Virus record (IMG/VR): IMGVR_UViG_3300037851_000175
Coordinates: 1-40,296 of that record
Source: a virus
Lineage: Duplodnaviria > Caudoviricetes
Reading direction: 5' to 3' (one strand)
DNA length: 40,296 nt
Part shown: positions 15,527-33,099 of the stretch, piece by piece
Numbering within the stretch: the first letter of the stretch is position 1
How the letters are laid out: each line of letters starts with the position of its first letter
Notes under the pieces: generated by a model
What the model saw: only the letters and a program-made list of their open reading frames with translations
Databases searched by the model: none
Told to the model about the DNA's origin: nothing
Made by a program: the position numbers and the translations under genes

Positions 15527-16257
15527 GTTTCCAGGAAATCAACCGGCGGCGGAGAGCCGAGGCGGAAGCCCGGAGAGCGTCACAGGAGACGATTCGCTCA
15601 TCCGGTGTTGGCGAGTCGAGGGTTTTTTCGGCTCCCGAGGGATCGTTCGAGGCCAAGCAGATGGATTGGTCGCAACTGACCATCAACCAAGCCCCGATTC
15701 CGCAGCATCTGTGGGGGCTGGTCCCCTACGAGATGACGGACCAGGGCGTGGCCGAGAAGAACGAGGGCAAGGAACCGGCGCGCGCGTCGGTACTGTCCGA
15801 TCCCATCGAGAAGCACGTCGCGGAGCGCAAGGACGCGGTCAAGAGCCGCGGCATGGCCTCATGGGAGGCGCCGGACGTGCGCAAGGAAGTCGCCGAGAAG
15901 CACGTCAAGCCCGGCTTCAAGGCGCGGTTGCTCAGTCCCCGCAAGGTGGAACTCGAGGGCACGCGCGGATGGGAGCCGGTGACGGACCGCAACGGCGATC
16001 CGGTCAAGGTGGGCAACTTGATTCTCGGGCAAATGCCCGAGGCGAAGGTCGCCCAGAGGAACAAGCATTATCGCGACCAGGCGAACGCTCGCCTGCAGCG
16101 CGAAGCAGAAGGCTACCAGGAGCAGCAAGCGCGGCTGTTGCGTGAGAGTGGAATCTCTCCCGATGCCGTGCGCCCCCGCAGCGGGGAAGACGGACTCCAG
16201 ATCGCACAGGGAAATGACGCTGGCTCCACGGATGTCCAGCAATTCTTTTCGACGTAA
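15523..16257 (+). CDS. Conserved head-module protein of unknown function
   Basis: RGWEPV...VGNLILGQMPE...QRNKHY motif seen between scaffold and capsid genes of related podoviruses. Confidence 0.7.
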   Translation: MSFQEINRRRRAEAEARRASQETIRSSGVGESRVFSAPEGSFEAKQMDWSQLTINQAPIPQHLWGLVPYEMTDQGVAEKNEGKEPARASVLSDPIEKHVAERKDAVKSRGMASWEAPDVRKEVAEKHVKPGFKARLLSPRKVELEGTRGWEPVTDRNGDPVKVGNLILGQMPEAKVAQRNKHYRDQANARLQREAEGYQEQQARLLRESGISPDAVRPRSGEDGLQIAQGNDAGSTDVQQFFST

Positions 16258-16269
16258 GGAGTCCACACT

Positions 16270-16791
16270 ATGGCGAACACCAACGCGCCCTTCGGCCTGC
16301 AGCCGACCGGGCGCAACCTCGCCGGTTCTTTCGCCCTGGAAATCGAGCACATGACGGTTGCGACCGCCGATGTGGTCTACCCGGGCGACGCAGTCAACCA
16401 GCTCGCGGACGGCACGATCGAGGCCGACTCCGCCACTCCCGGCACCACGCTCTACACCGGCGTCAGCCTCGGCTACAAGGCCGCGACGATCGCCAGCAAG
16501 ACCGTGCCGGTGGTAGTGGATCCTCTCGCGATCTTCATCGCGCAGGCCTCGACCTCACTGGCCAGCCCCGCCGACGCGGGTCTCAACGCCAACCTCGTGC
16601 TCACCGCGGGCGATTCCACGATTCTGCGCTCCAAGCACAGCATCGACGGAACGACCGAGGCTGTCACCAGCTCGCTGGACGTGAAGCTCAAGCGGCTCGC
16701 GCCCATCGTGGGCAACGAATCGGGCAACTACTCCATTTGGGAAGTTGTCTTCAACAAGCACCGCAACAACCCCGCGGTTGCCGGCGTGTAA
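16270..16791 (+). CDS. Capsid decoration/cement protein
   Basis: TAAGGAG RBS; MANTNAPFGLQP...VYPGDAV...VVVDPLAIFIAQ; beta-rich; immediately before MCP. Confidence 0.75.
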   Translation: MANTNAPFGLQPTGRNLAGSFALEIEHMTVATADVVYPGDAVNQLADGTIEADSATPGTTLYTGVSLGYKAATIASKTVPVVVDPLAIFIAQASTSLASPADAGLNANLVLTAGDSTILRSKHSIDGTTEAVTSSLDVKLKRLAPIVGNESGNYSIWEVVFNKHRNNPAVAGV

Positions 16792-16818
16792 CGGAGAAGG
16801 AGTCAAAGGAGAAACACC

Positions 16819-17736
16819 ATGCAGATCAGAGGCAATTTCAGCGACTTCTTCTTCGAAACGGCGCTTCCTGCCCTCCGCACCGTCATCGGCCGCGAATGGG
16901 CCGAGTATCCCGAGATGTACTCTCAGGTGCTCCGCGTCGAGTCTTCGGATCGCTCCATCGAACAGACCTCCCAGGTGTCCGGCGTTCGCCTGCTCTCGGA
17001 GATCGGTGAAGGCGAGTCCATCACCACCGACAACATCATCCAGGGGTTCGACAAGACGTTCCGCCACAGCAAGTTTGGCCTGGCGGTCCCGACCACCCAG
17101 GAAATGATCGACGATGACAAGTTCCGGCTTGTCACCGAAAGCCACCAGGGCCTCGCCCGCTCCACCAAGGAGACGATCGAGATTCAGGGCGCGTCGATCC
17201 TCAACAACGCGTTCTCCACGGTCACCGGCCCCGATGGCAAGGTGCTGTGCGCGAGCGATCACCCGCTCATCAAGAACGGCGGCACCCAGGCCAACCTGGC
17301 GAGCGTGTCCGCCGATCTCGACTTCGTCAGCCTCTCGTTGGCCCTGGCCGACATGGAACTGATGAAGGACTCGGCGGGACTGCTGCAGATCATCCCGGCG
17401 AAGCGCCTGGTGGTCGCCACAGCCAACCGGCTGATGGCGGCCGAGATCACCAAGTCCGCGGACCGGCCCGACACGGCCAACCGCGCGACCAACGCGCTGA
17501 AATACGCGCGCGATGGGATGCCGGAGGTCATGGTCTATCCGTACCTCACGGATCCCGACGCCTGGTTCTTGATGGCCCCGGCGAAACAGACCAAGCTCTA
17601 TTGGTTCTGGCGGAAGCGTCCGTACACCAAGAGCTGGTTCAACGATGAGCGCGAAGTCGGCTATGTCGGCACCCGCTACCGCGCCTCCTACGGCTTTGCC
17701 GACTGGCAAGGCGTGTGGGGGAATCCGGGGGCCTAG
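16819..17736 (+). CDS. Major capsid protein (HK97 fold, Mu gpT-like family)
   Basis: AAGGAG RBS; EIGEGESI, TQEMIDDD, GPDGKVLCASDHP, PYLTDPDAWFL, RYRASYGFADWQGVWGNPGA. Confidence 0.92.
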   Translation: MQIRGNFSDFFFETALPALRTVIGREWAEYPEMYSQVLRVESSDRSIEQTSQVSGVRLLSEIGEGESITTDNIIQGFDKTFRHSKFGLAVPTTQEMIDDDKFRLVTESHQGLARSTKETIEIQGASILNNAFSTVTGPDGKVLCASDHPLIKNGGTQANLASVSADLDFVSLSLALADMELMKDSAGLLQIIPAKRLVVATANRLMAAEITKSADRPDTANRATNALKYARDGMPEVMVYPYLTDPDAWFLMAPAKQTKLYWFWRKRPYTKSWFNDEREVGYVGTRYRASYGFADWQGVWGNPGA

Positions 17737-17767
17737 GGCTTCTCCGGCCGCAACACTGCCACCTGAC

Positions 17768-17797
17768 GCGGGGTGGCGCAAGTCACCCCGCACTTTT
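17768..17797 (+). terminator. Intrinsic terminator/attenuator after the capsid gene
   Basis: GCGGGGTGGC-GCAA-GTCACCCCGC hairpin with GNRA loop followed by ACTTTT. Confidence 0.7.
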
Positions 17798-17814
17798 CCA
17801 AGGAGACACCGAAC

Positions 17815-18141
17815 ATGGCCAAAGCAGCTCACCTTTCCGGCATCCACGTCAGCCCGTCGCCTGGCGGCGGCACCGATATCAAGCGCATCAAGAAATACTC
17901 CGTCACCGTCGATCTCACGTCCTGCACGGCCGCGACCACGAACGTGCAGACGGCCTCGGTCACCGGGCTCAAGTCGGGAGACCTCATCCTGGTCCAGCGT
18001 CCGTCCGGTCTCAACGCCGGGCTGAGCGTCGATGCGGCGTGCTACGCCGACGACACGCTCTCACTCATCATCAACAACGCAACGGCCGGCGCACTCGATC
18101 CTGCTTCGGCGGTTTTCGAGATCCTGGCGTTCAGCTTCTAA
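17815..18141 (+). CDS. Small virion (head fibre/decoration-like) protein
   Basis: AAGGAG RBS; beta-rich domain VTGLKSGD...PSGLNAGL...DDTLSL..NNATAGALDPASAVF. Confidence 0.7.
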   Translation: MAKAAHLSGIHVSPSPGGGTDIKRIKKYSVTVDLTSCTAATTNVQTASVTGLKSGDLILVQRPSGLNAGLSVDAACYADDTLSLIINNATAGALDPASAVFEILAFSF

Positions 18142-18157
18142 CGGAGGGCACGGCGCT

Positions 18158-18397
18158 ATGAACCAGACCGCCGAACGCTCCGCCACGAAGGCCTTTGCGA
18201 TCACGCCACACGACACCAACCGTCTCACGCAGCCGACGCGATTTCTCGCCGTCGGCGTGGCCGGAACCGTCACCGTGGATATGCTCGAGACCGGAACGTC
18301 GATTCAGTTCACGCTTCCCTCGGGTATTCATCCGTTACGCGTCACGAAAGTGTACGCGACGGGCACCGCGGCCACCGGCCTGGTCGGACTCGTCTAA
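18158..18397 (+). CDS. Head spike base protein (RcGTA Rcc01079-like)
   Basis: AFAITPHDTNRL..PTRFLAVGVAGTVTV...HPLRVTKVYATGTAATGLVGL matches the family pattern; GGAGG RBS. Confidence 0.8.
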   Translation: MNQTAERSATKAFAITPHDTNRLTQPTRFLAVGVAGTVTVDMLETGTSIQFTLPSGIHPLRVTKVYATGTAATGLVGLV

Positions 18398-18409
18398 GGA
18401 GGCTCGCCC

Positions 18410-19273
18410 GTGGCCAAGACTTGGGGCCAGATCCGGCTCGAACTGCATCAACAGTTCCCCACCATTCACCTCGACCTGCTCTCCTCCTGGATCCAGCAGG
18501 CGTACGAGGCGATCCTCGATTCGCGGCCGTGGGAGGCTCTCCGCGCGTTCGGAGTGTTGACCACGGTCGCACCGTATCAGGACGGCGCCGCGTCCTTCAC
18601 GAACGGAAGCTACACGGTCACGGGCAACGGGACGGCCTGGTCCGCGGCAATGGCTGGTCGGAAGATCCGGCCCCGCGAAGTGGATGACTACTACACCGTC
18701 ATGACCGTGGACTCGGCGACGCAGATCACGCTTGACCGTGCATACGCCGGAGATTCGCTCGCCGGCGCGGCATACGAGATCTTCCAGGACGAGTACCCGC
18801 TCGACATCACGGTCAAGTCGGTGCTGACGCTCAGCCCGCCGTACTGCGACCCGCAGGGGCCGTCCGCGGCGATCCGCGACACGCTGCGCTCCATCGTGAG
18901 CGTGCCGGCCATGTGGTGGCCGGTGGAGGACTATCCGTCTCTCCCTGTGGTGCGGAAGGTCCAGTTGTGGCCTATTCCCGACGCGGTGTACTCGATCCCC
19001 TACGAATACACGCTCGCGGTCTACGGCTTCGATGGCTCGAACACGCAGGACTCGCCCATGGCGTTCATTCATACGGCGGCGATCACCGACGCGGTGCGGG
19101 CAAAAGCGTACGCGCACCTCGGGCAGATGGGCCAAGCCGAGAGCGCGAAGGTAGAGATGCTCTCGGCGAGACAGGACATGGGTATGGCTGACACGGCGGA
19201 GCGCGGGCCGTCGGTGCTGCGGTTCGCTCCGTGGATGACGCGCCACGCATTCATGCGCGGGAGGAGAGGATGA
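18410..19273 (+). CDS. Head-tail adaptor/ring protein with an inserted beta domain
   Basis: TAAGGAGG RBS; KTWGQIR..., QLWPIPDAVYSIPYEY adaptor motif; insertion GAASFTNGSYTVTGNGTAW...VDSATQITLDRAYAG. Confidence 0.72.
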   Translation: MAKTWGQIRLELHQQFPTIHLDLLSSWIQQAYEAILDSRPWEALRAFGVLTTVAPYQDGAASFTNGSYTVTGNGTAWSAAMAGRKIRPREVDDYYTVMTVDSATQITLDRAYAGDSLAGAAYEIFQDEYPLDITVKSVLTLSPPYCDPQGPSAAIRDTLRSIVSVPAMWWPVEDYPSLPVVRKVQLWPIPDAVYSIPYEYTLAVYGFDGSNTQDSPMAFIHTAAITDAVRAKAYAHLGQMGQAESAKVEMLSARQDMGMADTAERGPSVLRFAPWMTRHAFMRGRRG

Positions 19274-21132
19274 AACATCTGATCGTACTTCTGTTGTTGG
19301 CGGCGGCGGCAGTCTCCGCGCAGCCGACGACCAACTCTGGCTCGGTCCCGCCTCCCAGCGCAATCAATCCGAACCTCACTCCGTATGTCGTCCGGGGCAC
19401 GACCCCTCCGCCGACCGGGGGCTGCGCCCAGTGGCTCAACGGCCGTCTCGTGACGACAGGACTCGCATGCGGCAGCGGTGGCGGTGGAACGGGCGCAGTG
19501 ACCAGCGTCTTTGGTCGCGCGGGAACCGTGGTCGCGCAAAGCGGGGACTACACGACCTCGCTCGTGACGGAAGGCACTTCGCTCTACTACACCGATGCCC
19601 GCGCTCGAGCGGCTATCAGCGGGGCGGCTCCTCTGCTGTGGAACTCCGGCGCCGGCCAGATGTCCTGTCCAACCTGTCTGGTGAGCGATGGAGCGTACAT
19701 CAATCCGACCTGGCTCTCCTCAATCACGAGCAGCAAGATTAGCGACCTGGCGGCGGGAGTCCGGGCTCAGATTTCCGCGGTCAGCCCCATTGAGTTCAAC
19801 TCGGGAACGGGCGTGATCTCGTGTCCGACTTGTGGGAGTGGCGGTGGGGGTGGGGCAGTCGATAGCGTATTTGGGCGGACGGGTACGGTGGTCCAGGTGG
19901 CCGGCGACTATAACACCGATCAGATCACGGAAGGCACCAATCAGTTTTTCACCCAGGCGAGAGCCCGCGGTGCGGTCAGTGCGACGTCTCCCCTGACCTA
20001 CAACTCCGGCACCGGCGCCTTCGGCATCCAGACGGCAAGCGGAAGCCTCACCGGCGCGCTGTCCTCGGCGGATTGGAGCACCTTCAACGCAAAGCAGGCG
20101 GCGCTTCTCCCGGCCGCTCCGATCTCGGTCAACGGCGCGAATATCTCCTGTCCGACCTGTCTTGTGGGAACGGAGAACTACGTCAACCCCTCGTGGCTGA
20201 GCGGCATCGACGCGGCGATCATCTCCGGGCTCGCGGCCTCGGCGACACTGGACACCACCAATGCCAGCAACATCACGTCGGGCACGCTCGGCGCTGGGCG
20301 ATTGCCGGCGATCCCCAACATCCAGGGGACGACGGTGGAGTCGGGGTCCTTCACGGGCGATGGGCAGTTCTACGCGTATAGCACCGGCACCACGCAGCTC
20401 CGGCGGTTTGGCTTCGGCAACTTGCTCACGGTCAGCGGAACGACGGTCAATGTGGCGACAGAGAGCGTTCCGCGCTACTCGACGGGGACCTCGGTTCCGG
20501 GCAGTTGCTCGGCCTACGGAGAGTTGTTCTTCGAAACGGACCTCGGCACCGGGCTCAAGATGTACTACTGCAACGGATCCACCTACGAGCAGATCCAGGG
20601 CACTGGCGGCGGGGGTGGCGGATCCACGGTGGGCGCGTGGAGCGGTACGGTCAACATCGGCAACCTCGTAGACGGAGCGTGCGGAGAGGCGACCTTCACC
20701 GCAACGGGCGTCCTGGCCGGTGCGATGCTGGCTCCGGGCTGGCCGTCTGGACTCGAGGCGGGGCTGTTGCCGTCGATGATCGCCTCGGCAGCGGACACGA
20801 TCAAGGTCCGACTGTGCAACCTGAGCGGAGCAGAGGTGGATCCGGCGTCTGCCACGTTCACGGCGCAGCTCGCGCAGGGATACCTCAACGCCTCCGCCTC
20901 GATCAACTTCGGCTCGATCAATGATGCGGCGTGCGCCACCAACACGCTCACGGTGACGGGAGCGGCGACAGGCGACAAGGTGTCTCCTGGCTGGCCGTCC
21001 GGCCTGGAGACCGGGCTCGTGGGCAGTATGCGAGTCACGGCGGCGGACACCGTGACGATTCAACTTTGCAATCTTTCCGGTAGTTCGGTAGATCCGGCGT
21101 CGGCGACGTTCGCCGCGGCGGTCATCAAGTAG
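19270..21132 (+). CDS. Fibre-like protein with N-terminal Sec signal peptide (620 aa)
   Basis: MKHLIVLLLLAAAAVSA/Q; two AV(T/D)SVFGRxGTVV...GDY...TEGT..(Y/F)T.ARAR fibre repeats; three SCPTC; two C-terminal PSGLE.GL...DPASATF domains. Confidence 0.8.
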   Translation: MKHLIVLLLLAAAAVSAQPTTNSGSVPPPSAINPNLTPYVVRGTTPPPTGGCAQWLNGRLVTTGLACGSGGGGTGAVTSVFGRAGTVVAQSGDYTTSLVTEGTSLYYTDARARAAISGAAPLLWNSGAGQMSCPTCLVSDGAYINPTWLSSITSSKISDLAAGVRAQISAVSPIEFNSGTGVISCPTCGSGGGGGAVDSVFGRTGTVVQVAGDYNTDQITEGTNQFFTQARARGAVSATSPLTYNSGTGAFGIQTASGSLTGALSSADWSTFNAKQAALLPAAPISVNGANISCPTCLVGTENYVNPSWLSGIDAAIISGLAASATLDTTNASNITSGTLGAGRLPAIPNIQGTTVESGSFTGDGQFYAYSTGTTQLRRFGFGNLLTVSGTTVNVATESVPRYSTGTSVPGSCSAYGELFFETDLGTGLKMYYCNGSTYEQIQGTGGGGGGSTVGAWSGTVNIGNLVDGACGEATFTATGVLAGAMLAPGWPSGLEAGLLPSMIASAADTIKVRLCNLSGAEVDPASATFTAQLAQGYLNASASINFGSINDAACATNTLTVTGAATGDKVSPGWPSGLETGLVGSMRVTAADTVTIQLCNLSGSSVDPASATFAAAVIK

Positions 21133-21141
21133 GAGAACTCA

Positions 21142-22317
21142 ATGCGAATTGGAATTTACAAGCCCGTTCTGGTCGTGATCGCGCTGGCCTTCCTGTTGGT
21201 CTGCGTGGCGCCGTTCGCGCTCACTCAATCCCCGCCGATCCGCGTCGGCGGAACCCCGGACTACTGCGCGGACGCAGGCTCCACTGATGCCTATGCGTGC
21301 AGCCTGAGCCCGGCGATCGCGGCCTATACCAATGGGGCAAGTTATCGCTTCAAGGCGAACACAGCGAACACAGGCGCCGCGACTCTGGCCCTCAACGGCC
21401 TGACAGCAACCGCCATCGTCAAGTACACCGGCGGCGTCGCTTCGGCTCTCGCGGACAATGACATCCGCGCGGGGCAGATCGTGACCGTGGTCTACGACGG
21501 AACCAACTTCCAACTGGCGTCGATGCTCGGCAATGGCGGGGCCGGTGGAACCACCTACACCTTCCGGCATCTGCTGTCGGAGTCCGGCGGCACCGTGGAC
21601 TACGACACCATCGACGCGCGGTACTTCATCCGGCGCGATGAGTGGGTGGGGAACTCCTGGGTGGCTGCGAATATCAACGGCACTGGATCCTCGGCCGTGG
21701 TGGCGGGATCGGTCACTCATCCCGGCGTGATGCGGTCCACCTCCGGCGCGACTTCCGGCAACATGAGCGGCTGGTACTCCTACAGTTCTTCGCTTGATTA
21801 CCACCCCGGGCAGATTTGGAACTCATCCATGCCGCCGTTCCGGTTTGTCGCGGTCTGGAAAATGAACTCCACCACACAGGTCCGGTTCTTTGTTGGAGGG
21901 CAGACCACCAACAACGTCGTGGAAGCCGCAAACCGTTGGGGAATGCGGTATGACCTTGGCGGCACCCAATGCAGTGGGGCGGATACAACGAACTGGACGT
22001 GGGTCTTCACGCAGAGCGCCGGTGGCTCGGGTTGCGTCGATACAGGAGTTGCGGCAGACACTAACTGGCACACCACCTACATGTGGCGCGACACTTCTGC
22101 AAATAACAAACTCTGGATGCAGTTGGACGACGGCACGCCAGTCTCGTTCTGCCCCTCTGGCTGCACGGTCAACAGCGTCACTCCCAGCGCGTCGAACACA
22201 TACACGCTGGTGATCGCCATGGGGACGAATGAAGCGGTCGCAAAGTCTGTGGATGTGGACTACACCGCTTACGATATCGGTCCGTTCAGCGGTGCAACTC
22301 GAACTAAGAGGCCTTAA
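21142..22317 (+). CDS. Fibre/lectin-like protein with signal peptide (391 aa)
   Basis: AGGAG RBS; MRIGIYKPVLVVIALAFLLVCVAPFALT/Q; tail-fibre-type domain FKANTANTGAATLALNGL; aromatic-rich beta-sandwich C-terminus (DTGVAADTNWHT). Confidence 0.78.
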   Translation: MRIGIYKPVLVVIALAFLLVCVAPFALTQSPPIRVGGTPDYCADAGSTDAYACSLSPAIAAYTNGASYRFKANTANTGAATLALNGLTATAIVKYTGGVASALADNDIRAGQIVTVVYDGTNFQLASMLGNGGAGGTTYTFRHLLSESGGTVDYDTIDARYFIRRDEWVGNSWVAANINGTGSSAVVAGSVTHPGVMRSTSGATSGNMSGWYSYSSSLDYHPGQIWNSSMPPFRFVAVWKMNSTTQVRFFVGGQTTNNVVEAANRWGMRYDLGGTQCSGADTTNWTWVFTQSAGGSGCVDTGVAADTNWHTTYMWRDTSANNKLWMQLDDGTPVSFCPSGCTVNSVTPSASNTYTLVIAMGTNEAVAKSVDVDYTAYDIGPFSGATRTKRP

Positions 22318-25300
22318 TGCGATTCCTTTTCCTCCTTCTCCTTGTCCTCCCCGTTGCGGCTCAGGTGACAGTGGAGGACTGGGCTTGTCAAGCTCCGACC
22401 TCCGCGACGGCAGGGAACCCTACGCTGGTAACGTGCCCTGCTCCGCTTGGACACGGCTTCAGCAACTTCCGAGCCACGGCGATCATCAAGGCGTGGCCGA
22501 CCTCCGGCACGGTGACGATTGGCTCGCGGACCTATCGCTTCGTCAACGATCTGACGGGCTGCGCGGCTGGTGATGTGCGCGTGCCGGTCTCGTCTGAGTT
22601 CAGCGACAACGCGAACACCACCCAAGCCAACCGCGGAGCGTTCCTGGCCGCGGCGATCATGGCAGAGTCCGAGGCCTGGGTTCAACAGCCGAACAACGTT
22701 CCAGTGCGCTGGCCGACCACGAATATCTTCTGTCCTGGAACCACTCCTCACCCCGATGTGAACGGGTATTTCACGTTCTCGAGCTACGAACCCATCGTGG
22801 CGGTTCAGGCGAAGGTCGGCGGCGCCGCGGGCGAGCTGGCGCTCTCGCAGACTGGCGGCTTTAGCCTCCAGTATTTTGACCGCACGACAACGCTGGCCAC
22901 GATGAAGCGCCATTGGCGTGTGCGGATCGAGGGAGCGTCCGGTGGCTGGGCTGGGATCGGATCTGCTGGGCGAATCGCAGAGGTCGGCGCAGATGCGAAT
23001 ACGGTTCGTGTTCTCTACAACTCCAGTACGGCAGGCTCCTGGACTGGGCAAGCGTGGGCGATGCGGCGGATCACTTGGGATGTGTCGGGGGTCCAATACT
23101 ACGCTCACCAGAACACGGGCGATTATCCAGGCCCGACAGAGTTGTTTCTCAACGGGCTGTATGGACTGCAGATTGACGGGTGCCAACCGTCCAATACGGA
23201 GCTCGAGTGCGGCCGCGCGTTCTTCTCCCCGGACAACCAAAAAGGCTACTACGACACCGCGTACATGACGGCATCCTCGTTCACGGTTTCCGGCGGCATC
23301 GGCACAATCACGCTGGCGTCCAACTGGGCGGGAACGCGGCCGACTCCGGCGGCAGTGGATGCCCGGTTCTATCTTCGCGGCTTCCAGAAGTACCACCTTC
23401 AGTACAACATCTCGACCTATGCCGACAACGGCAGCGGCACCACGCGGGTCACGACGACGGCGGCGCACAACTGCACGGCTGGTGTGGATCAGGTCCACAT
23501 CTCGGGCGCAACCGGAGCCAATGCGCCGGCAGGTACTTACGGGATCACCGTCATCAGCACGACGCAGGTAGACCTGACGGGGAAAGCGTACGCGGCCGGC
23601 TGGAGCGGCGGCATCCTGTCGTGTAACCCGCACGGTCGGCAGGCCCAGGATGAGGCCCAGTGGTACAAAGTCACAAGCGCAACGCAATTCAAGGCGTTCA
23701 AAACCTTGACGGCGGTGGGCAATACGTTCACGTTCGCGTCTCTTCTGGCTGATGGCACCTATACCGGAAGCTGTGTACCGGCCGGAAGTTGCCTCAAGAC
23801 GGGAGTGACGGGGCCAGTAGTGATCTCCTCGCCAAAGACCGCGCCCTATCTGTACATTGTTCCCCGCAGCACGACGGCTGGAAACGACTGGTTTTATCCC
23901 ATCGACACCCTCTGGTTTCACTCCAAGAATGTTGTTCCAGAGAAAACCAACCGCCAGATTTATTGGATCAAGTGGCCATTCCGAACCCGACAGGGTACGT
24001 CGTATAACGCAAACCTGGGGACCTTTGCGCTGACGTCCAGCTCGGGCTCGAGGGCGGCTGGGCGAGCGCATTTCTATCACTATCTCAGTAATGGCTCGGA
24101 ACAGGATGAGTGGGCCAAATACTACTTCACCGGGGCCGCGTCGCACCAGCAGGGCTCTAACGGAGCGTTCCCAAACAATCCAACCACCTTTCCCGGCCAT
24201 CCGTATAACGCTCAATGGATGGGGGGCAACGATCCGAATTGGCGGTATTACGACGGATCCACAATCACTTACCTGGATGCAACGGGTGGGCCGGGGCCTG
24301 GGATGCCGGAGAACTTCTACGGCTACACGACAACCTACTTCGGCAAGATTCAAGCGATGCGCGTTGACCGGGAGCCCGACGGGTTTGTCCGGAACATGAC
24401 GCTCCACTGGCGAACGCATCTCTGGAACGGCTCTAGCTATGACGCAAACACAGGAGTCAACGTCGGATTCGACGGGCTCCAGTACGATTTCGATACGGAG
24501 TATTATCTGCGGTACTCCACCACGGGCAGTTGTAAAACGCTCGGGTGGAGCAACTGCACGACGTCTCCTGGATTCGTGAAGATCGCGGACCCAGGCGGCG
24601 GATACAAGGCGGTGGTCTGGGCGTCTCCGACGATCACTCCGCGGCCCGATACCATTTGGGTTGGCATCCGCCCGAAGGTCAAGATCCTGAGCGCGAGTCC
24701 AGACGGTCAGCCTATGTGGTTCTACGTCCGCGATGACATAGGGATCGAGGCTGGCGATACCATCACGGTCAGCGGAGCTGGTGGAAACCGCGACGGAGTG
24801 AATCGAGTGGTGGCGGAGGCGACGCCTCGGCGGATCTGGTACATTGACGAGCCCACATCAGGCGGCTGGTCAACTGGAACGGGGGCAGTCCTCAATATTA
24901 CTGCCGCGTCCGCAACCTGCACGGCGAACCTGCGGCAGGCCCACGGCATTGTACCGGGGCAGTTCATCACCGTGAGCGGAACGACGAGCGCGGCCCTTGG
25001 AGCTGGCGATCATCTCTGGCTCAACATCAAGAAGTACACCGTTGCTTCGACGCCGACGGCAACCAGCTTCACCTTCGCGTGTCCTGGCGTGGCGGATGGC
25101 GTATTCTCGACGAACCTCAGCGGGTATCGCTTTGCGATCTGGGCATACCCGGGGCTCCGCATCAACACGACGGCGACCGGCGCTCCAGCGGTGAGCGGCG
25201 GCGTCCTGGAGGCAACCTCGGAAACTACTGCGTTTACGGAGATCATGCTTGAGCCCTACGACCAGGCCCCGGCGCCTCCGCCGAACGCACCAACAAATCT

Positions 25301-26309
25301 GGCCTGCTCTGGGGTCAGTACATCTCAGACCAACTGCACTTGGACGGATGCATCGACCGATGAAACCTCGTTCCAGTTTGAGCGCGGCATCGGCAGTTCG
25401 TACACCTTCCAGGCGACGCTGGCGGCGGGAACAGTCGCCTACAACTCCACCGGCCTGGCGGAAAACACCACCTACAATCACCGCGTGCGGGCGTGCAACG
25501 CCGGCGGTTGCTCGGACTGGGCCGGGCCCGTGGCGGCGGCAACGGATCCTGTCAATCCCGTCCCGAACGCTCCGTCGGCGCTGACAGTTAACCGCATCAG
25601 CGACACGATGGCGGCGATCTCCTGGACGGACAACTCCGACAACGAGGGCGGCTTCAACATCGAAGTCGTGGGTCAAAGCAACTGGACCGCCAACGGAAAC
25701 GAAACCTCGCTCCGTATCTTGGGGCTGAGTCCGGCGACGGAGTACACCTTCCGCATACAGGCCTGGAACGGGTCGGGCACCTCGGCCTGGGCGACGGCGA
25801 CGGCAACCACCGATCAGTCAGGAACGGCGCGGATCGTGCGTTCGTTCGTGGGTGGTGCCGAGATCGCGTACGCGGCCGGCGCTTTCTCGTCCTGCACCGG
25901 GTACGCGATCCATCCGCTCGGCACCGTGGAGTCCGTCACCAACGATGAGACGGGGTACAGCCGGCGCAGCCTGTTTCTGAGTGGGCTGCAACCGGGCCTG
26001 GATTACTCCTTGGTCGTGGACTGCGGCAGCACCAGCGCGAGCCTTCGCATGACGACGCCGGCGGCTGACTCCTCCACGCTCCAGATCGCAATCGGCGGCG
26101 TGGCTCCCGCTGGCGTCGATGCGCTCTCGGTGGACTACGGCGCAACCGGGAGCCTCGGGAGCACCGCGTCTACGAGCTGCACTCCGGGGGTCTCCTGCGT
26201 GGTCGGCATCTCTGCCACGAATGGGAGCATCCTATTCACGCGGCGCCGCTGGACCTACCAGGGAGCGACGGTCCAGACGAGTGCCGTAGAGAGGACGGTC
26301 GTTCAGTGA
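22317..26309 (+). CDS. Large multidomain adhesin/fibre-like protein with signal peptide, FCCH-like beta modules and two fibronectin type III domains (1330 aa)
   Basis: MRFLFLLLLVLPVAA/Q; FN3 motifs PNAPTNL...WTDASTDETSFQFER...GLAENTTYNHRVRACN and PNAPSAL...WTDNSDNEGGFNIE...GLSPATEYTFRIQAWN. Confidence 0.82.
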   Translation: MRFLFLLLLVLPVAAQVTVEDWACQAPTSATAGNPTLVTCPAPLGHGFSNFRATAIIKAWPTSGTVTIGSRTYRFVNDLTGCAAGDVRVPVSSEFSDNANTTQANRGAFLAAAIMAESEAWVQQPNNVPVRWPTTNIFCPGTTPHPDVNGYFTFSSYEPIVAVQAKVGGAAGELALSQTGGFSLQYFDRTTTLATMKRHWRVRIEGASGGWAGIGSAGRIAEVGADANTVRVLYNSSTAGSWTGQAWAMRRITWDVSGVQYYAHQNTGDYPGPTELFLNGLYGLQIDGCQPSNTELECGRAFFSPDNQKGYYDTAYMTASSFTVSGGIGTITLASNWAGTRPTPAAVDARFYLRGFQKYHLQYNISTYADNGSGTTRVTTTAAHNCTAGVDQVHISGATGANAPAGTYGITVISTTQVDLTGKAYAAGWSGGILSCNPHGRQAQDEAQWYKVTSATQFKAFKTLTAVGNTFTFASLLADGTYTGSCVPAGSCLKTGVTGPVVISSPKTAPYLYIVPRSTTAGNDWFYPIDTLWFHSKNVVPEKTNRQIYWIKWPFRTRQGTSYNANLGTFALTSSSGSRAAGRAHFYHYLSNGSEQDEWAKYYFTGAASHQQGSNGAFPNNPTTFPGHPYNAQWMGGNDPNWRYYDGSTITYLDATGGPGPGMPENFYGYTTTYFGKIQAMRVDREPDGFVRNMTLHWRTHLWNGSSYDANTGVNVGFDGLQYDFDTEYYLRYSTTGSCKTLGWSNCTTSPGFVKIADPGGGYKAVVWASPTITPRPDTIWVGIRPKVKILSASPDGQPMWFYVRDDIGIEAGDTITVSGAGGNRDGVNRVVAEATPRRIWYIDEPTSGGWSTGTGAVLNITAASATCTANLRQAHGIVPGQFITVSGTTSAALGAGDHLWLNIKKYTVASTPTATSFTFACPGVADGVFSTNLSGYRFAIWAYPGLRINTTATGAPAVSGGVLEATSETTAFTEIMLEPYDQAPAPPPNAPTNLACSGVSTSQTNCTWTDASTDETSFQFERGIGSSYTFQATLAAGTVAYNSTGLAENTTYNHRVRACNAGGCSDWAGPVAAATDPVNPVPNAPSALTVNRISDTMAAISWTDNSDNEGGFNIEVVGQSNWTANGNETSLRILGLSPATEYTFRIQAWNGSGTSAWATATATTDQSGTARIVRSFVGGAEIAYAAGAFSSCTGYAIHPLGTVESVTNDETGYSRRSLFLSGLQPGLDYSLVVDCGSTSASLRMTTPAADSSTLQIAIGGVAPAGVDALSVDYGATGSLGSTASTSCTPGVSCVVGISATNGSILFTRRRWTYQGATVQTSAVERTVVQ

Positions 26310-26989
26310 CGTTCGGCGAACTCAAGACCGAGGTTCTGCGTGAGGCCGGGGAGAACCCGGCCCTTCCGCGTTTCTGGACTGCGACCGAAGCGGGGAACGC
26401 CATCAACCGGGCTCAGTCCGTTGCGGCCTGGCTGACGCTGTGTTTCGAAGCGGACGGGACACTGGCCCATCCCGGCGGGTTTACCGCCGTCGCCCCGGGC
26501 GCCACCTTCGCCGATTGGATTCTGCCGCTTCGTGTCCGCGTCTCCGGCTTGCGTCTGATGCCGGGCAGTTTCGAACAGTTCCGCGCGGAGAACCCACTGT
26601 GGCCTTCGCTGCCAAGTGGCGTGGCTCGATACGCGATGGAAGGCTGGAACCAGATGTGGGTGTACCCTCGCCCCGCTGCCGCTATTACCTTGGAGGTCCG
26701 GCGCGCGCGGTCGCCCATCGTGATGACGCTGGACGCGAATGTGCCAGAACTGGCTGGCGAGTACCACGGCGCACTGGTCGATTATGCGGTCTTCGCTCTC
26801 CGGGCCAAGGAGGGCGCATCCGAGTTTGCGAAAGTCTTGCCGCGGCTCCGGCGGTTCCTCGAGGCGATGGCCTCGCTCGCCGGCCAGGTCCGGCGGCGCG
26901 CGATCGCGCAGAACTACGACGTGCTGCCGTCGGAATCCTTCGTTGAATCCCTGGAGAACCCACAGTGGCTATCGACTGCAGCCAAGTAA
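26306..26989 (+). CDS. Tail adaptor/ring protein (tail tubular A / P22 gp4-like role)
   Basis: MTFGELKTEVLREAGE...FWT..E...AINRAQ; WVYPRP; PELAGEYHGALVDYAVF. Confidence 0.78.
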   Translation: MTFGELKTEVLREAGENPALPRFWTATEAGNAINRAQSVAAWLTLCFEADGTLAHPGGFTAVAPGATFADWILPLRVRVSGLRLMPGSFEQFRAENPLWPSLPSGVARYAMEGWNQMWVYPRPAAAITLEVRRARSPIVMTLDANVPELAGEYHGALVDYAVFALRAKEGASEFAKVLPRLRRFLEAMASLAGQVRRRAIAQNYDVLPSESFVESLENPQWLSTAAK

Positions 26990-27588
26990 AAGCCGACCTG
27001 ACGACGCTCCTCCATGCGACCGGGGACAACGACCTGGTCTGGTGGAGCGGCGATGAACTGTACGATGCGATCGACAGCGCGGCGCAATCGCTCGCCGAAA
27101 GCACGCAACTGCTCGGAGCGTCGTACCTCCAAGGACTCCAGGACCAGGTGGGAGCGTACATCGTCGGCCTGCGGCCGCTGGCGTGCCGCGCCGTGATTGC
27201 CGACGGCCGGGCGATCGTCGAGTCCCCCGTGGAGGATCTGGAGGCGCTCAACCCGAATTGGCGCGAATGGGAGGATACGGTCCCCGAGCGGTTCGCCCTC
27301 GACGCCGAACAGCGCGGAACGTTGCGCGTTGTCCCCAAGGCGTCATCGGCTTCGACCGGCAAGGTGCTGCAGACGCTCTACCGCCAGGCGCCCCCCGAGA
27401 TCAACTCCGGGGCCACGGCTCTCGACTATCCCGGCGCACTGAGCGAGTGCTTGCTCTGGTCGGCGCTGGCCGGGGTGCTGAGCAAGGAGGGCAAGGGCGC
27501 GCGGCCGGAGATGGTGCAGGCGTGCCAGGGGATGGCGGATCTGATGACCGCGGCGGCGAAGGAATACTATGGCGTTCGCAAAACATAA
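26965..27588 (+). CDS. Second tail adaptor/ring paralogue
   Basis: WWSGDELYDAIDSA; LEALNPNWRE...PERF; LRVVP; YPGALSECLLWSAL, parallel to the upstream gene. Confidence 0.72.
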   Translation: MAIDCSQVKADLTTLLHATGDNDLVWWSGDELYDAIDSAAQSLAESTQLLGASYLQGLQDQVGAYIVGLRPLACRAVIADGRAIVESPVEDLEALNPNWREWEDTVPERFALDAEQRGTLRVVPKASSASTGKVLQTLYRQAPPEINSGATALDYPGALSECLLWSALAGVLSKEGKGARPEMVQACQGMADLMTAAAKEYYGVRKT

Positions 27589-30500
27589 CCAGCGCATCCT
27601 GTCCGGCTCGCTGAACCTGCTGCCTCCGCCCGATAAAGTGGAGCAGCCAGACTCGGTCGTGCTCCAGAACTGGCGCGTGGACCAGGCCGGGTGCCTGCGA
27701 TCGCGCAAGGGTTCCACGGTCCTCAACGGCGCGCTGCCGGGTAAGGTCCACTCCCTGTTCCGCGTCGGCACCACGCGCTATGTCGGGACCAGTACGGCGA
27801 TCCGCACCGGTTCCGACGCCTCGACCTCCCTCGACACCGGATACGACGGTAACCCCGTTTCCTTCGCAGCGTTCCAGAACTGCGTGTGGATCATGAACCG
27901 CGGACGCCAACGGGTGACCGGCGGTCTCCTGCCGTCCGGCACGCACCCGTGGCCCATCGTCGCCCCGGCAACCGCTCCATCGGTGGCGGCGGGAGCCGAG
28001 CAGTCCGCGGCGCTGGTGGAGTTCGACAGTGCCGAATCGTGGGGCTGCGTGAAGTTTCTGGACAACACGGCGGAGGTCAATCCATCCGGCGCTCTGCTGT
28101 ACGACACATCGAACAAGATCAGCGGCACTCATTCGGCGCACGTCGTCGCCAACCCGGCGGCGAAGTGGCAGCTTCGGAAGGACTCGATCTCGCCGGCAAA
28201 GGATCTACGATTCTCCGGCGTGGCGCGCGATGATGACCAACTGCGGCTGTGGTTCTACAATTCGGACCCGTCGAAAATCACCAGCATTGTGGTCGTGCTG
28301 TTCTGCGGAGCCGAGCCCCGCGGCACGGTGACGGCGTGGATCGACCCGGCCATCCTCAAGCAGACCACCTACCAGTGGAACGAACTGCGCATCTCGCGCC
28401 GCATCGACCCCAACTCGGTGGTGACGAGCGACCCCGGGTACAAGGAGCTGCTGGTCCAGATCCAGCAGGCTCGCGAGCGCGGCGACTCCGCGCAGGAGCA
28501 AGCTCTCGAGGATCAGCGCGCGAACCTCTGGGACACGCTGGTCCGGCGCCGCCCGCTGTTCCAGGACTCCTATGTCGGCGGCACGGCGTTCGATTGGTCG
28601 AACGTCAACGGCATGGTGGTCGAGGTCGTCAACACGGAGCCAATCGACTGGCACTGCGACGTCGCCGCGATGCTCGGCGGGGACGCCGGGTCTCTGGAGG
28701 GCGAGTATCAGTACGCGGTCTCCTACGGCAACGAAGAAGGGCACGAGTCGATGCTCGGCCCCTACTCCGCCGCGATCACCGTGCAGAAGAAACAGGTCAG
28801 CGTCACGAGCATTCCGGTCAGCGCCGATCCCCAGGTGACGGTGAAGTACCTGTACCGCGTCGGCGGACCGCTCGACAGGCCGCTCCGCATCAAGGAACTG
28901 CTCAACGCCACCACGAGCGTCACCGACGACATCTCGAACGACCAGGCGCAGAACCTCAACCTGGCCGCGCAACTGGACGTGGATCCTCCGCCGGCCGCGC
29001 GTGGAATGCTCGGTCCTGTGCAAGGGCGGCTCGTCGCCTGGTCCTCGACGGCTCACAAGAACAGGTTATGGTACACGCCCGTCGCGCAGCCGTGGAAGTG
29101 GCCGGGTTCAACCGATGAGTTCGAAGGCTACTGGTTCGACGTGGGCCAGGACTTCGAAGAGATCCTCGCGGTGACCGAGTACGCGGGCATCCTTCGCGTC
29201 TACAAGGAAAAGACCATCCATCGCATCGTGGGCAACCTGGACGATGCCACACCCGTGCAGACGGCAGCCAAAACCGCTCCGGTCGGATCGCGCGCCGTGT
29301 GCGCCGCGGCTGGCGGCTCGGACTACTTCGTCGGCCCTCGCGGCGTCTATCGCTTCGATGGCCAGATCGAGCGCAAGGTCTCGTGGAAGATCAACCCCAT
29401 CTTCGAAGGGGATTGGGCGGACATCGGGGGGACGTATGTTCCCCCCGTGAATCGCGCGGCGCAAGCCGAAATCGTCTGCGAGTACAAGGCCGGACAGTTG
29501 TGGGTCTCCTACCCGGAGACCGGCCAGACGACGCCGACGGTCACGCTCATCTACGACGAGGAGGGCGACCGCTGGAGCTGCCACAAGCTGGGGAACGGCA
29601 TTCCGGGCCCGGCGTTTACCGCGCTCTACTACGAGGGATCTAACGGCGATTACCTGGCGGGCACGAACGGCGGAGCCCTCTACAAGCTCGAGGACTCGCT
29701 CAACGACGCCGGCGCCGCCATCCCGCTGGTGTGGCAGTCGGCGATGTTCGCGCCGTGGGGGCCCGATGCGTCCGCCGTCCTGGGAGACCTGGTCGTGGAC
29801 GCGCAGACCGGCGTGGGCGCGCAGACTCCGGCAACGCTGACCGTCAAACTGATCCTGGACGACGGCACGGTCGTGACTCTCGGCACGATCTCCACGGTGA
29901 CGCGGCCCGCGCAACCCACGGTCTACAAGCTCAACGGCGGGCTCGGCTACGAACTGAAGCGGTTCGCGGTCCGGCTGGAGTGCAACACGTCGAATGCGGA
30001 AGTGCTCGTGCATGGCGTTCACATCCACTGGTATCCGCTCGCGCGCACCGGACAGACCTTCGATACGGGTGTCATCGAACTCGCGCCTGGGCGCGTCGCG
30101 CAACTCAAGCAGATTGACCTCGACTGGAAGGAGTCGGCAACGGTTAGTGCGCTGGTCCATTCGGATCTGCCCGGAGACGTCGTCGCGCAACGTTACAGCG
30201 GATCGCTCGGTCACGTCGATGGGCGGCGCTCTGAATCGCTGGTCTATCCGGCTGTGATCGAGGGACGGCGGCATCGCATCGTCCTACACAACACGGGGAC
30301 CATGCAAATCTTCCGGGCGCGCGCGCTCATCCGGCGCATCGGCGAGTGGATGGACGGGGCCAATGGAGAGTACTGGTCCTCTGGCCCGTTCTCGCCCTAC
30401 GGCATCCACGTTTGTCACCTGGTGGAGGAGATCGAACTCGACCTCGACACCGATGCGGCCGCAACGCTATCCATCCTGAGCGAGATCCCCGGATCGAACC

Positions 30501-30763
30501 AGGCGTCGCGGCAGTCCTGGACTGTCAACACGGAGACGACGACGACCGGCCGGCGCCCGTGGAACGAGCGCACAGTTCCGATTCGCGGCCAGATTCTGGA
30601 GGTCCGGTTGGCTCCCTCCGGCGTCTGCCGGCTGTTCGGCGGACGGATCAAGCTCCGCGGCCTGGGCGGAGCCTACGACTGGCAGTGGGTGCCGCTGCCG
30701 GGCATCCGGCAAAGCGACCAGGCGTTTGATTGGGTGGAGTTGGCAGTGGACATCACCAGATGA
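27569..30763 (+). CDS. Tail nozzle / DNA stabilisation protein (P22 gp10 / T7 gp12-like role)
   Basis: 1064 aa after the adaptors; GSLNL...LQNWRVDQAGCLRSRKG N-terminus; propeller-like blades (RLWYTP, LRVYKEKTIHRI, GVYRFDG, LIYDEEGDRWS). Confidence 0.8.
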   Translation: MAFAKHNQRILSGSLNLLPPPDKVEQPDSVVLQNWRVDQAGCLRSRKGSTVLNGALPGKVHSLFRVGTTRYVGTSTAIRTGSDASTSLDTGYDGNPVSFAAFQNCVWIMNRGRQRVTGGLLPSGTHPWPIVAPATAPSVAAGAEQSAALVEFDSAESWGCVKFLDNTAEVNPSGALLYDTSNKISGTHSAHVVANPAAKWQLRKDSISPAKDLRFSGVARDDDQLRLWFYNSDPSKITSIVVVLFCGAEPRGTVTAWIDPAILKQTTYQWNELRISRRIDPNSVVTSDPGYKELLVQIQQARERGDSAQEQALEDQRANLWDTLVRRRPLFQDSYVGGTAFDWSNVNGMVVEVVNTEPIDWHCDVAAMLGGDAGSLEGEYQYAVSYGNEEGHESMLGPYSAAITVQKKQVSVTSIPVSADPQVTVKYLYRVGGPLDRPLRIKELLNATTSVTDDISNDQAQNLNLAAQLDVDPPPAARGMLGPVQGRLVAWSSTAHKNRLWYTPVAQPWKWPGSTDEFEGYWFDVGQDFEEILAVTEYAGILRVYKEKTIHRIVGNLDDATPVQTAAKTAPVGSRAVCAAAGGSDYFVGPRGVYRFDGQIERKVSWKINPIFEGDWADIGGTYVPPVNRAAQAEIVCEYKAGQLWVSYPETGQTTPTVTLIYDEEGDRWSCHKLGNGIPGPAFTALYYEGSNGDYLAGTNGGALYKLEDSLNDAGAAIPLVWQSAMFAPWGPDASAVLGDLVVDAQTGVGAQTPATLTVKLILDDGTVVTLGTISTVTRPAQPTVYKLNGGLGYELKRFAVRLECNTSNAEVLVHGVHIHWYPLARTGQTFDTGVIELAPGRVAQLKQIDLDWKESATVSALVHSDLPGDVVAQRYSGSLGHVDGRRSESLVYPAVIEGRRHRIVLHNTGTMQIFRARALIRRIGEWMDGANGEYWSSGPFSPYGIHVCHLVEEIELDLDTDAAATLSILSEIPGSNQASRQSWTVNTETTTTGRRPWNERTVPIRGQILEVRLAPSGVCRLFGGRIKLRGLGGAYDWQWVPLPGIRQSDQAFDWVELAVDITR

Positions 30764-33099
30764 TTACCTACGATCCCATCCCGCAGGACCTGACCGACCA
30801 GAACGAGCTGGTGCGGCTCATCAACGAGCGACTGGAGGATATGTCGCGCCGGCATCCGGTCATCTCGGGCGACGTCGATATGCGCGGCTACCGCATCCGC
30901 AACCTTGGCGAGCCCGTGGACTCGACGGATGCCAGCCCGCTGCATCGCGCAAGCCGGGTGATTCGGCGCACGGCGCCAGTGGAAGCGGGCAACACCACTG
31001 TCATTAACAACCCAGTGGCCCCGGGCGTCGAGCCGACGCAGTTGACCTCCGGGGACATCTCCCTGACGATCACCTACACCTCGGACGCAACGGGAGCCCA
31101 GTACGCGAAGATTGCGGTGACCTACACTCCCACCGGCGAGGCCGGCACGCTTGTACAAGTGTGGGGTTATCAAGCGGCGAGCCCGCCTAGCGATCCAAAG
31201 GACTTCAAGGACCCGATGACGTTTCCGATGGGCGGCGTGATCGAGTGGTATGTGGATCGGCCGAAGGCGGGGACGGTGTGGCAGTACGCGTTCACGGTGA
31301 GTTCCGGGACGTACTGGAAGATTCCCGATGCCAATACGCCGGTCAAGACGGCTACGATCACCGCGTGGGGCGTGGCTCCGCAAGTGACAGGCTTCAGTGT
31401 CACGGTGGATTACTCGGACCGCGGCGGCGTGCCGTCTGGCCGGTTCGTCTATGCATGGACGGTTCCGGCCTCGGCGGAGTACCGCTACTGCGCTGTCGAG
31501 CGGATCGCCTGTGATGCGACCTACACTCCTCTGGTGGGTGCGGTCTGGACGCGCGTGGCCGGCGATGTGGTCCCCAAGCAGAACGACTGGTGGCCGCAGC
31601 CGACGGCGCGCGAATACTGGCAGTTCCGGGCGCGGTCAGCGAATATCGCGGAGGAACTCAACAGCACGGCACCACCGACAGTGAATGTGACGGTGGACCC
31701 GTCCTCCGGCATCGCCTCGGGGGACTCGCCCGCGGATCCGATCACCCAGGCGGGATTCTCTGCCACGGTGGTCCAGTACGCAGCGAAGCCGAGCGGCGAG
31801 CAGTTGGCGTTGATCCGGGTGAGCTACTCTCCTCCGGGCAACGCTGACCTGGTTGGCATCTGGGTATACGAGGGCGGCGACCCAGGCTCCAACTACAACG
31901 CCTACCAAAACGTCACCTACTACAACAACGGCGCCACAGCCGAGTTCTGGTGGCCGCGGCCGGTGGTGGGCGCGACGCTCTATATCCGCATGACCAGCGA
32001 CAAGAAAACGTATTTCGCCAAGGTCGATGCGAACACCCCAGTAACGTCGGTAACGTTGAGCGCGTGGGGCGTGGCTCCGCAGGTCACGTTCATCAACGTC
32101 ACGGTGAGCTACCAGACGGCGGCGGGGCTGCCGCAGGGTCGCTTCACCTACTCGTGGGGCAAGCCGGTTCATCCTGAGTTCCGGCAGGCGTACATCGAAC
32201 GGATCGCGTGCGACGCGGCATTCAACCCGCTGGGCGGTGCCGACTGGCAACGCGTCGCCGGAGAGCAGAACTCAGGCACGACGAGCGACTGGTGGCCGCG
32301 TCCGGCGAACAACGAGTACTGGAAGTTCCGCGCGCGGAGCGTCAACGATGCTGGCGTCACCAACGACACGGCTCCACCGACACAGAACGTCACCGTTTTG
32401 GGCGGGGCGAAGTTGAATCTGGGCTCAGACTGGGTAGACCCGAACTCGCTCGGCGCTGGGCTCGGTTGGGATCCGGTGACCGAGAAACTGATTATCCCGG
32501 CGGGAGCCGTGGTCGATCAGATGATCGGATCGCTGGCAGCAAACAAGATCCTGGCGGGCACGATCACGGCGGCGGTGAGTATGACGTCTCCCTCGCTGTC
32601 GATCACGGGCGGGTTGTTCACGATGGCGATGAACAGTTCCGTCGGGTTGACCGTGAACGCCAACGGAGAGCAACTGGGGATCAACTCCAACTTCATGTAC
32701 GTCCAGGGCTCCGGCGGCGTGTACGCGCGCTATGGTTCCCAACTGTTCTACGTCCAGAACTCTAGCTACTTGACCAGGGGATACGTCGATGTGTTCGGCG
32801 CGTACCTGGAGGTGGATTCCCCGTACAGCAGCGGCATTGTGGTCCGCTCCACGTCCACGGGAGATTCCATTTTCGGTAACGGGACGGGGGCGTATTTATC
32901 CTTCACCGGCTCGGGCTCCTACCTCAACGCGGGCGAGCTCCGGCTCGGCGGGTCCGTCGTCATCGACTCCAGCCGCAACGTCCGGTGGTTTGGCGTCTAC
33001 AACGAAACCATTGCCCTCGGGGGCATCACCATCAATCAGTGGATCGCGGCGTACAACTCGTCGGGTTCCTACATTGGGAAGATTCCGATCATTCCGTAA
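30760..33099 (+). CDS. Tail fibre/central spike with duplicated Ig/FN3-like modules
   Basis: N-terminal coiled anchor, two copies of DANTPV..AWGVAPQVT...ERIACDA...DWWP...EYW.FRARS.N...TAPPT.NVTV, then IGSLAANKILAGTITA and a Gly/Ser beta-rich tip. Confidence 0.78.
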   Translation: MITYDPIPQDLTDQNELVRLINERLEDMSRRHPVISGDVDMRGYRIRNLGEPVDSTDASPLHRASRVIRRTAPVEAGNTTVINNPVAPGVEPTQLTSGDISLTITYTSDATGAQYAKIAVTYTPTGEAGTLVQVWGYQAASPPSDPKDFKDPMTFPMGGVIEWYVDRPKAGTVWQYAFTVSSGTYWKIPDANTPVKTATITAWGVAPQVTGFSVTVDYSDRGGVPSGRFVYAWTVPASAEYRYCAVERIACDATYTPLVGAVWTRVAGDVVPKQNDWWPQPTAREYWQFRARSANIAEELNSTAPPTVNVTVDPSSGIASGDSPADPITQAGFSATVVQYAAKPSGEQLALIRVSYSPPGNADLVGIWVYEGGDPGSNYNAYQNVTYYNNGATAEFWWPRPVVGATLYIRMTSDKKTYFAKVDANTPVTSVTLSAWGVAPQVTFINVTVSYQTAAGLPQGRFTYSWGKPVHPEFRQAYIERIACDAAFNPLGGADWQRVAGEQNSGTTSDWWPRPANNEYWKFRARSVNDAGVTNDTAPPTQNVTVLGGAKLNLGSDWVDPNSLGAGLGWDPVTEKLIIPAGAVVDQMIGSLAANKILAGTITAAVSMTSPSLSITGGLFTMAMNSSVGLTVNANGEQLGINSNFMYVQGSGGVYARYGSQLFYVQNSSYLTRGYVDVFGAYLEVDSPYSSGIVVRSTSTGDSIFGNGTGAYLSFTGSGSYLNAGELRLGGSVVIDSSRNVRWFGVYNETIALGGITINQWIAAYNSSGSYIGKIPIIP

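Follow-up and report, generated by a model that had tools for sequence, protein, structure and literature searches.

Three consecutive genes in the late operon of a phage, here called A, B, and C, begin with Sec-type leaders, and judging from the sequences, their products are very probably exported and disulfide-folded. Exported fibre genes of this kind are present in most of the related phage loci and are a lineage-wide feature rather than a one-off system. Regarding the fate of the exported proteins, we lean toward the reading that A, B, and C are exported by Sec, disulfide-folded in the periplasm, and attached, as dispensable glycan-binding appendages, to completed particles at about the time of lysis. 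By the usual view, assembly of a tailed phage particle takes place entirely in the reducing cytoplasm. If our reading is true, exported and disulfide-folded receptor-binding parts would represent a second assembly compartment for tailed phages. Moreover, it would explain the borrowing of secreted host lectins by phages as attachment devices, and it would change the annotation of leader-bearing phage genes, which are currently dismissed as morons or mis-starts.

Phage and gene organization

The window, i.e., the whole stretch of DNA that was analysed, corresponds to the complete virus record of 40,296 bases. The sequence was present in freshwater metagenome runs, and no RNA datasets were listed among the runs carrying the record. 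A single contig of 16.7 kb covered positions 15601-32351 with zero differences, and its run may be the source of the record. Based on the gene content, the phage reads as short-tailed, with a late gene set of terminase, SU10-type portal, capsid, adaptors, a nozzle-like gene, a leaderless fibre-like gene, and probable ejection genes. The 3' end of the contig is open, and a scan of 28 proteins revealed neither an integrase nor a lysis gene. As the capsid relatives found in species genomes were all titled Acidobacteria, Terriglobia, or Bryobacteraceae (10/10), the host is likely a member of the Acidobacteriota. Moreover, the lineage is probably temperate because related loci sit on Acidobacterial contigs of 69-396 kb. 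The features of the window that are referred to below are as follows.

16819..17736, + strand: major capsid protein, the basis of the lineage survey
17773..18141, + strand: post-capsid protein, leaderless, with the tip module of A but not its Cys pair; internal control
18158..18397, + strand: Rcc01079-type head-spike base, leaderless
18410..19273, + strand: adaptor-like virion gene directly 5' of A, leaderless
19270..21132, + strand: gene A, 620 aa, leader 1-17, 14 Cys; shaft repeats (SVFGR, TEGT..YT.ARAR, CxxC) in a trimer model, and two C-terminal beta-sandwich tip modules with one Cys pair each
21142..22317, + strand: gene B, 391 aa, leader 1-28, 6 Cys; widespread phage-fibre module (37-135, including the pair Cys42/Cys53), followed by a Gly linker and a ConA/LamG-type lectin domain; candidate head-spike fibre
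22317..26309, + strand: gene C, 1330 aa, leader 1-15, 22 Cys; beta-rich domains without a known family, two FN3 domains, and Cys-paired C-terminal domains
26306..27588, + strand: two SU10-adaptor/phrog_399 genes directly 3' of C, leaderless
27569..33099, + strand: nozzle-like gene and leaderless fibre-like gene (30760-33099), cytoplasmic tail parts

Further downstream, a GNAT acetyltransferase (33621-34151) lies between the tail and ejection genes, and a big, open-ended probable ejection protein (35926-40296) contains a P-loop-like stretch, TAGGTGSGKST, which was read by eye and possibly belongs to an injected kinase or zeta-like domain.

The tight coupling of the three genes to the morphogenesis operon, as stated in the preliminary description, was confirmed. 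A overlaps the adaptor stop, the start of C lies inside the stop of B (TAATG), and the SU10-type adaptor gene overlaps the stop of C. Promoter and terminator scans remained at the chance level, with no excess around A, B, and C.

Leaders, start codons, and cysteines

The leaders of A, B, and C consist of a basic n-region and an h-region followed by VSA/Q, ALT/Q, and VAA/Q, respectively, and the small residues at -3 and -1 conform to the Sec/SPI type by both heuristic and eye. The best 11-residue hydropathy was 3.2-3.5 in these leaders vs 0.08-2.0 in the eight flanking virion genes tested. Accordingly, both earlier claims, that the leaders end before Gln and that the flanking virion genes have no signal peptides, were upheld. 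The rule used to call leaders was our own and required a basic n-region, a hydrophobic core of 9 residues, and small residues at -3 and -1; its calls were checked by eye, and it overlooks some genuine leaders. Apart from the leaders, no additional 19-residue membrane segment was found in A, B, and C (best hydropathy ≤1.35), and there was no C-terminal outer-membrane barrel, membrane helix, or lipobox that would anchor an autotransporter or adhesin.

Translation beginning downstream of the hydrophobic segment had been named as a concern. A purine-rich ribosome-binding site precedes each chosen ATG, and in-frame stops are located 12 nt upstream of B and of C. In the public annotation, C (P0390, 1265 aa) begins downstream of the leader, which speaks for the concern, whereas a near-full-length C homologue (P0393, 29%) aligns from residue 1 with a leader of its own and supports the longer form.

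The mature cysteine counts of 14, 6, and 22 agreed on recounting, and the cysteines form local pairs 3-57 residues apart. Reading the CxxC motifs as heme c sites was ruled out, as no His follows CxxC. Even counts in three genes would arise by chance in 1 of 8 cases, and the leaderless neighbour at 26965 has a Cys density of 1.9%, equal to those of B and C. Thus, the significance of the cysteines must come from a survey of homologues.

Co-variation of leaders and cysteines in homologues

In the B module, the Cys pair was present in 49 of 50 leader-bearing homologues and in 10 of 93 others; 8 of these 10 have a leader by eye, and after their reassignment, the pair remained in 2 of 85 others. The module (37-135) gave 12,595 matches at E 0.001, and these counts were taken from the best 150 together with other survey proteins. 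Similarly, the shaft CxxC of A was observed in 13 of 22 leader-bearing segments vs 2 of 238 other segments. Among the Met-starting homologues of A, those bearing a leader (n = 24, of which 23 had even counts) showed a median of 1.43 Cys per 100 aa, while the others (n = 88) showed a median of 0.11. Within the window itself, the leaderless protein at 17773 contains the C-terminal tip module of A (E 7e-9) without its Cys pair. When A was searched alone, four loci were retrieved, with leaderless module matches only.

The Cys pairs are largely confined to the leader-bearing versions of a module at the level of single alignment columns, and the pattern recurs in separate modules, although the survey rows are relatives of each other and the p-values overstate their independence. 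This column-level co-variation strongly supports the earlier proposal of export and periplasmic disulfide folding.

It also bears on the possibility that the leaders are mis-called starts or uncleaved hydrophobic docking peptides, with normal cytoplasmic assembly. The window contains a candidate partner for such peptides, as gene 18158 matches an Rcc01079-type base (6tb9, E 1e-6) in agreement with its first assignment. According to the available part of the RcGTA study (PMC7296036), the hydrophobic N-terminus IALGLGLGL of Rcc01080 (residues 2-10) docks on the Rcc01079 base, and together with the later start in the public call of C, this is the evidence for hydrophobic docking without export. 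However, genuine ligands of Rcc01079-type bases read M-x-LG(L/I)G, whereas the basic n-region, leucine-rich core, and Ala-X-Ala/Gln ends recur across unrelated sequences, and the column-specific Cys pairs track the leader. Non-export leaders are thus very improbable. Among other loci with such a base (n = 34), approximately one-third have a neighbouring downstream gene whose product begins with a docking repeat of the LG(L/I)G type, as judged by eye. No fibre with an (I/L)GLGL docking repeat was present on the coding strand of the window, whose 3' end is open.

Four leader-bearing fibre homologues (P0039, P0058, P0074, and P0092) are mostly Cys-poor and in this resemble the phi18:3 proteins described below; they may form a second class that is exported but has no disulfides. 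Another leader-bearing fibre-module gene was observed in an odd element (L230:8176-17435) beside a transglutaminase-like gene and many small genes without known function; the element is possibly a virus without a tail or another kind of mobile element.

Leader genes in related phage loci

A survey of homologous loci for retained signal peptides had been suggested. In total, 170 capsid loci were fetched, of which 57 were retained because their capsid was distinct and the sequence extended for at least 4 kb beyond it. A leader gene was present between the capsid and nozzle in 37 of these 57 capsid-deduplicated loci. Leader calls among the core genes amounted to 4 of 133, all of which were apparent mis-starts. 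Mature Cys counts were even in 44 of 60 complete leader genes (p 4e-4). The corresponding figures were 67 of 133 for core genes and 61 of 112 for the remaining accessory frames, among which are shadow frames and leaders that the rule missed. Gln occupied the +1 position in 49 of 60 leader genes, and the leader genes of the lineage were mosaics. Among the 28 loci extending as far as the nozzle, only 14 contain leader genes, so these genes are dispensable.

An N-terminal family beside the adaptor genes, with weak matches to PHROG tail-fibre and virion families, occurred with a leader in 11 rows, 10 of which had an extra Cys pair, and without a leader in 2 rows (L013 and L105), neither of which had the pair. 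The leaderless anchor family was present in 8 of 32 loci and the leader-bearing one in 7, with none sharing both and 17 having neither (p of approximately 0.10 for the exclusion, derived by hand). A, B, and C were in none of the N-terminal clusters of their relatives and lacked either adaptor-side anchor family. In a siphovirus-type prophage of an Acidobacteriota genome (L228:11674-12561), a leader-bearing gene with the B module lies right behind the capsid-slot gene. In the post-capsid slots (L007-L175), at least four interchangeable small leaderless families were observed where the window phage has the Rcc01079-type base; these are likely alternative vertex or decoration proteins.

Fibre folds and the proposed route to the particle

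The fibre nature of the proteins was supported by structural modelling. Residues 76-345 of A were modelled as an intertwined trimer with a score of 0.84, compared with 0.00 for the best control, with pLDDT ≥92 and at least 95% of contacts shared between runs. In calibration, 20 of 30 solved pairs passed the mark, as did 1 of 23 single chains; as this calibration was made on two copies, it is only roughly valid for the A trimer. In Foldseek, the tip modules of A matched phage tailspike-type proteins (rmsd 0.8-1.6 Å over approximately 83 residues) and small stand-alone phage proteins; there was also a weak match to KP32gp38 (E 1e-3). The C-terminal domain of B was a ConA-type lectin sandwich by fold match, as the lectin-like assignment had implied, and the FN3 domains described earlier were located in C as a pair; the rest of C had no family match. 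The lectin fold of B and the tip modules of A are putative distal receptor-binding domains. In contrast, the FCCH-like modules were not substantiated, as A, B, and C gave no Pfam match to FCCH at E 0.1 and the sole lead was an Atlas value of 0.78.

With respect to anchoring, PDB sequence searches returned no match for A, for B, or for either of the anchor alignments built from their relatives, and no N-terminal virion-anchor domain of A or B was matched in Pfam, PHROG, or PDB. The S74 fibre chaperone (PF13884) is found in many homologues of A that lack a leader, while A itself has neither this chaperone nor a recognised anchor. Accordingly, by the anchor test, A, B, and C are not members of a named fibre family; they would work like an optional head or side fibre.

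The leaders and even cysteines predict folding outside the cytoplasm and joining of the particle only around cell lysis. Along this route, A, B, and C would be transcribed late, exported by Sec, and presumably cleaved by signal peptidase I before Gln; the Cys pairs would then be oxidised by the host Dsb system, and A would trimerise in the periplasm. Upon failure of the inner membrane, the fibres could contact finished particles and dock through a mature N-terminal peptide or domain, for which PIRVGG of B on the Rcc01079-type base is a guess. The fibres would then bind the capsule or exopolysaccharide of the next Acidobacterial host. Given export, attachment to the particle is fairly likely in our estimation. 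Therefore, of the earlier proposal of exported fibres added at or after lysis, the part on export and disulfides stands through co-variation, and the part on addition to particles is plausible, with Cellulophaga phage phi18:3 as a cultured precedent.

The same genes could instead encode soluble lysis cargo, exported late and set free at lysis as lectin decoys or coat-loosening helpers that benefit the next infection with no particle binding. The late-operon position, the absence of an anchor, the optional and variable presence, and the lack of a recognised virion-binding domain in C agree with such cargo. However, no enzyme domain was found in A, B, and C, and the long trimeric shafts and N-terminal domains common to leaderless virion-slot genes suggest attachment, as does the phi18:3 precedent. 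We regard free cargo as improbable.

Exported cassettes and a GTA-like cluster in host genomes

Docking on particles must also be weighed against a cellular role, since the trimer of A is also compatible with cell-surface adhesins and similar exported cassettes occur in host chromosomes far from phage genes. A leader-bearing family sharing the modules of A was detected in 146 of 201 genomes of one family, titled Bryobacteraceae, and in 4 of 301 genomes phylum-wide; the host tallies include two genomes flagged as unpublished (G408 and G384), and none of the conclusions depends on either genome alone. Twenty host regions were read, which were picked for high score and long contigs and are non-random. 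Among them, 14 lay near polysaccharide genes and 14 had a partner of 1000-1450 aa, and several repeated the A-B-C size pattern. No phage structural Pfam was found in the 72 proteins scanned, i.e., 66 of 117 neighbours and 6 partners. One chromosome carried a trio of A-like, B-like, and large genes in the same order as in the phage (E 4e-11, 2e-16, and 0.016). Chromosomal cassettes of one to three exported, Cys-paired genes of the QTxIDLRTQ family (L262-L281, L229:9096-14794, and L231:323-1447) mostly adjoin polysaccharide genes, and one lies directly upstream of hfq-hflX.

Among the phage accessory proteins, 26 of 74 with a leader matched these host genes, in one case over 97% of the phage protein, vs 12 of 157 others. 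A, B, and C have modules in common with host genes but do not match over their full length. A resembles the first gene of the host cassette solely in its internal modules and its tip modules (60.7% over 84 aa), and the QTxIDLRTQ N-terminal domain of that gene is absent from A. C has a partial host homologue. A comparison of C with the C-terminal domain of the large third host gene gave an hhalign probability of 9.9% (E 0.003), with no HMM match for C, and its C-terminal 161 aa gave one weak match in 201 genomes of the phylum and none in five prophage hosts. The host domain was rejected as a general host sorting signal because 14 of 41 genomes contained it, usually as a single copy and in many cases beside the cassette.

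These observations, together with the probably temperate lineage, speak for a captured host-type surface cassette, whose exported products would bind the polysaccharides coating the host and function on the infected cell or the lysogen, never on the particle, for instance in adhesion, biofilm matrix, or receptor masking. Accordingly, the surface-adhesin alternative raised in the preliminary description has gained support from the three-gene exported cassettes, whereas A, B, and C have no membrane or lipoprotein anchor. Tight translational coupling on the same strand of a late operon with no excess of promoters or terminators also argues against it, as does the finding that the modules mostly occur in leaderless phage fibres. 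Overall, a purely cellular role appears rather unlikely, and docking on particles is retained as the preferred reading.

A GTA-like capsid gene was detected in 180 of the 201 family genomes, mostly as a single copy and with at least 72% identity in the listed rows. It belongs to a syntenic head-tail cluster of approximately 17 kb (L288:11012-L289:7270 in G284, and also L290-L297) with terminase, portal, capsid, tube, two DUF2460 genes, and a J-like hub, as annotated in one copy; no fibre, integrase, or lysis gene was evident in five of five copies. From its gene content, the cluster is a candidate for an undescribed gene transfer agent in a family dominant in soil and freshwater. The host cassettes could serve this near-universal, fibreless cluster, which counts against a purely surface role. 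Within the family, the cassette showed no association with the capsid and was present in 12 of 18 listed capsid-negative genomes, with two unpublished genomes left out. In the phylum sample, the two co-occurred in 3 of 301 genomes, and because all belong to one family, this match counts as a single case.

What is new here is the occurrence of related exported fibre genes in 146 of 201 Bryobacteraceae genomes and of the GTA-like capsid in 180 of 201, and these tallies support a surface role in the host or, alternatively, a route of particle decoration common to both. As surface or matrix proteins, the host cassette products would favour the cellular alternative; as the missing appendages of a GTA-like particle, they would extend our reading. 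Tentatively, Acidobacterial tailed phages and the domesticated Bryobacteraceae element might share a pool of Sec-exported, disulfide-stapled fibres that join finished particles at lysis, with hosts keeping copies beside receptor polysaccharide genes and phages swapping modules to track host coats.

Comparison with known systems

The closest precedent was found in phi18:3 (NC_021794, Pachyviridae), in which gp085-gp087 resemble A-C as three neighbouring leader-bearing genes with Gln at +1. The GenBank notes record MS/MS detection and a virion/tail annotation for these proteins and are silent on leader removal. Eight other MS-noted genes of this phage were tested, and all were leaderless. The phi18:3 proteomics reportedly appeared in a 2013 paper by Holmfeldt and colleagues. 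Unlike A-C, gp085-gp087 are Cys-poor (0, 1, and 3) and lie outside the head-tail block, and a search of the phage collection with A as the query revealed no homology to phi18:3. No discussion of their export was found in the accessible literature. The open-licence literature, with subscription papers outside its scope, likewise yielded no paper on exported fibres in tailed phages or on an Acidobacterial GTA, and the available parts of PMC5723332, PMC13288928, and PMC13412088 contained nothing about exported virion proteins.

In RcGTA, the head spike is a flexible capsule-binding fibre on a pentameric base, as described in the available part of PMC7296036, and the head-spike and tailspike genes adjoin capsule and polysaccharide-export genes on the host chromosome, as described in that of PMC5026251. 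The likeness lies in the base of the head spike (Rcc01079/Rcc01080), which is homologous to window gene 18158, and in the adjacency of the head-spike and tailspike (Rcc00171) genes to capsule genes, which resembles that of the Bryobacteraceae cassettes to polysaccharide genes. As Rcc01080 docks via residues 2-10, it has no cleaved leader, and an N-terminus of its kind was absent from the coding strand of the window.

The host cassettes can be likened, by description only, to Vibrio RbmA/RbmC/Bap1, which are secreted biofilm-matrix lectins encoded beside exopolysaccharide genes; both are exported, lectin-bearing, and located near polysaccharide genes. To our knowledge, the Vibrio proteins have no phage fibre repeats. 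Inovirus coat proteins and phage spanins are phage proteins that use Sec or Dsb. However, the former are membrane-anchored and assembled at the membrane, while the latter are lysis proteins outside the particle. Late addition to finished particles occurs spontaneously with the P22 tailspike. Finally, trimeric phage fibres and tailspikes, namely, S74-chaperone fibres and the C-terminal domains of KP32gp38, resemble A in shaft repeats, trimer model, and tip fold, but they have no leaders and almost no cysteine (0.11 Cys per 100 aa).
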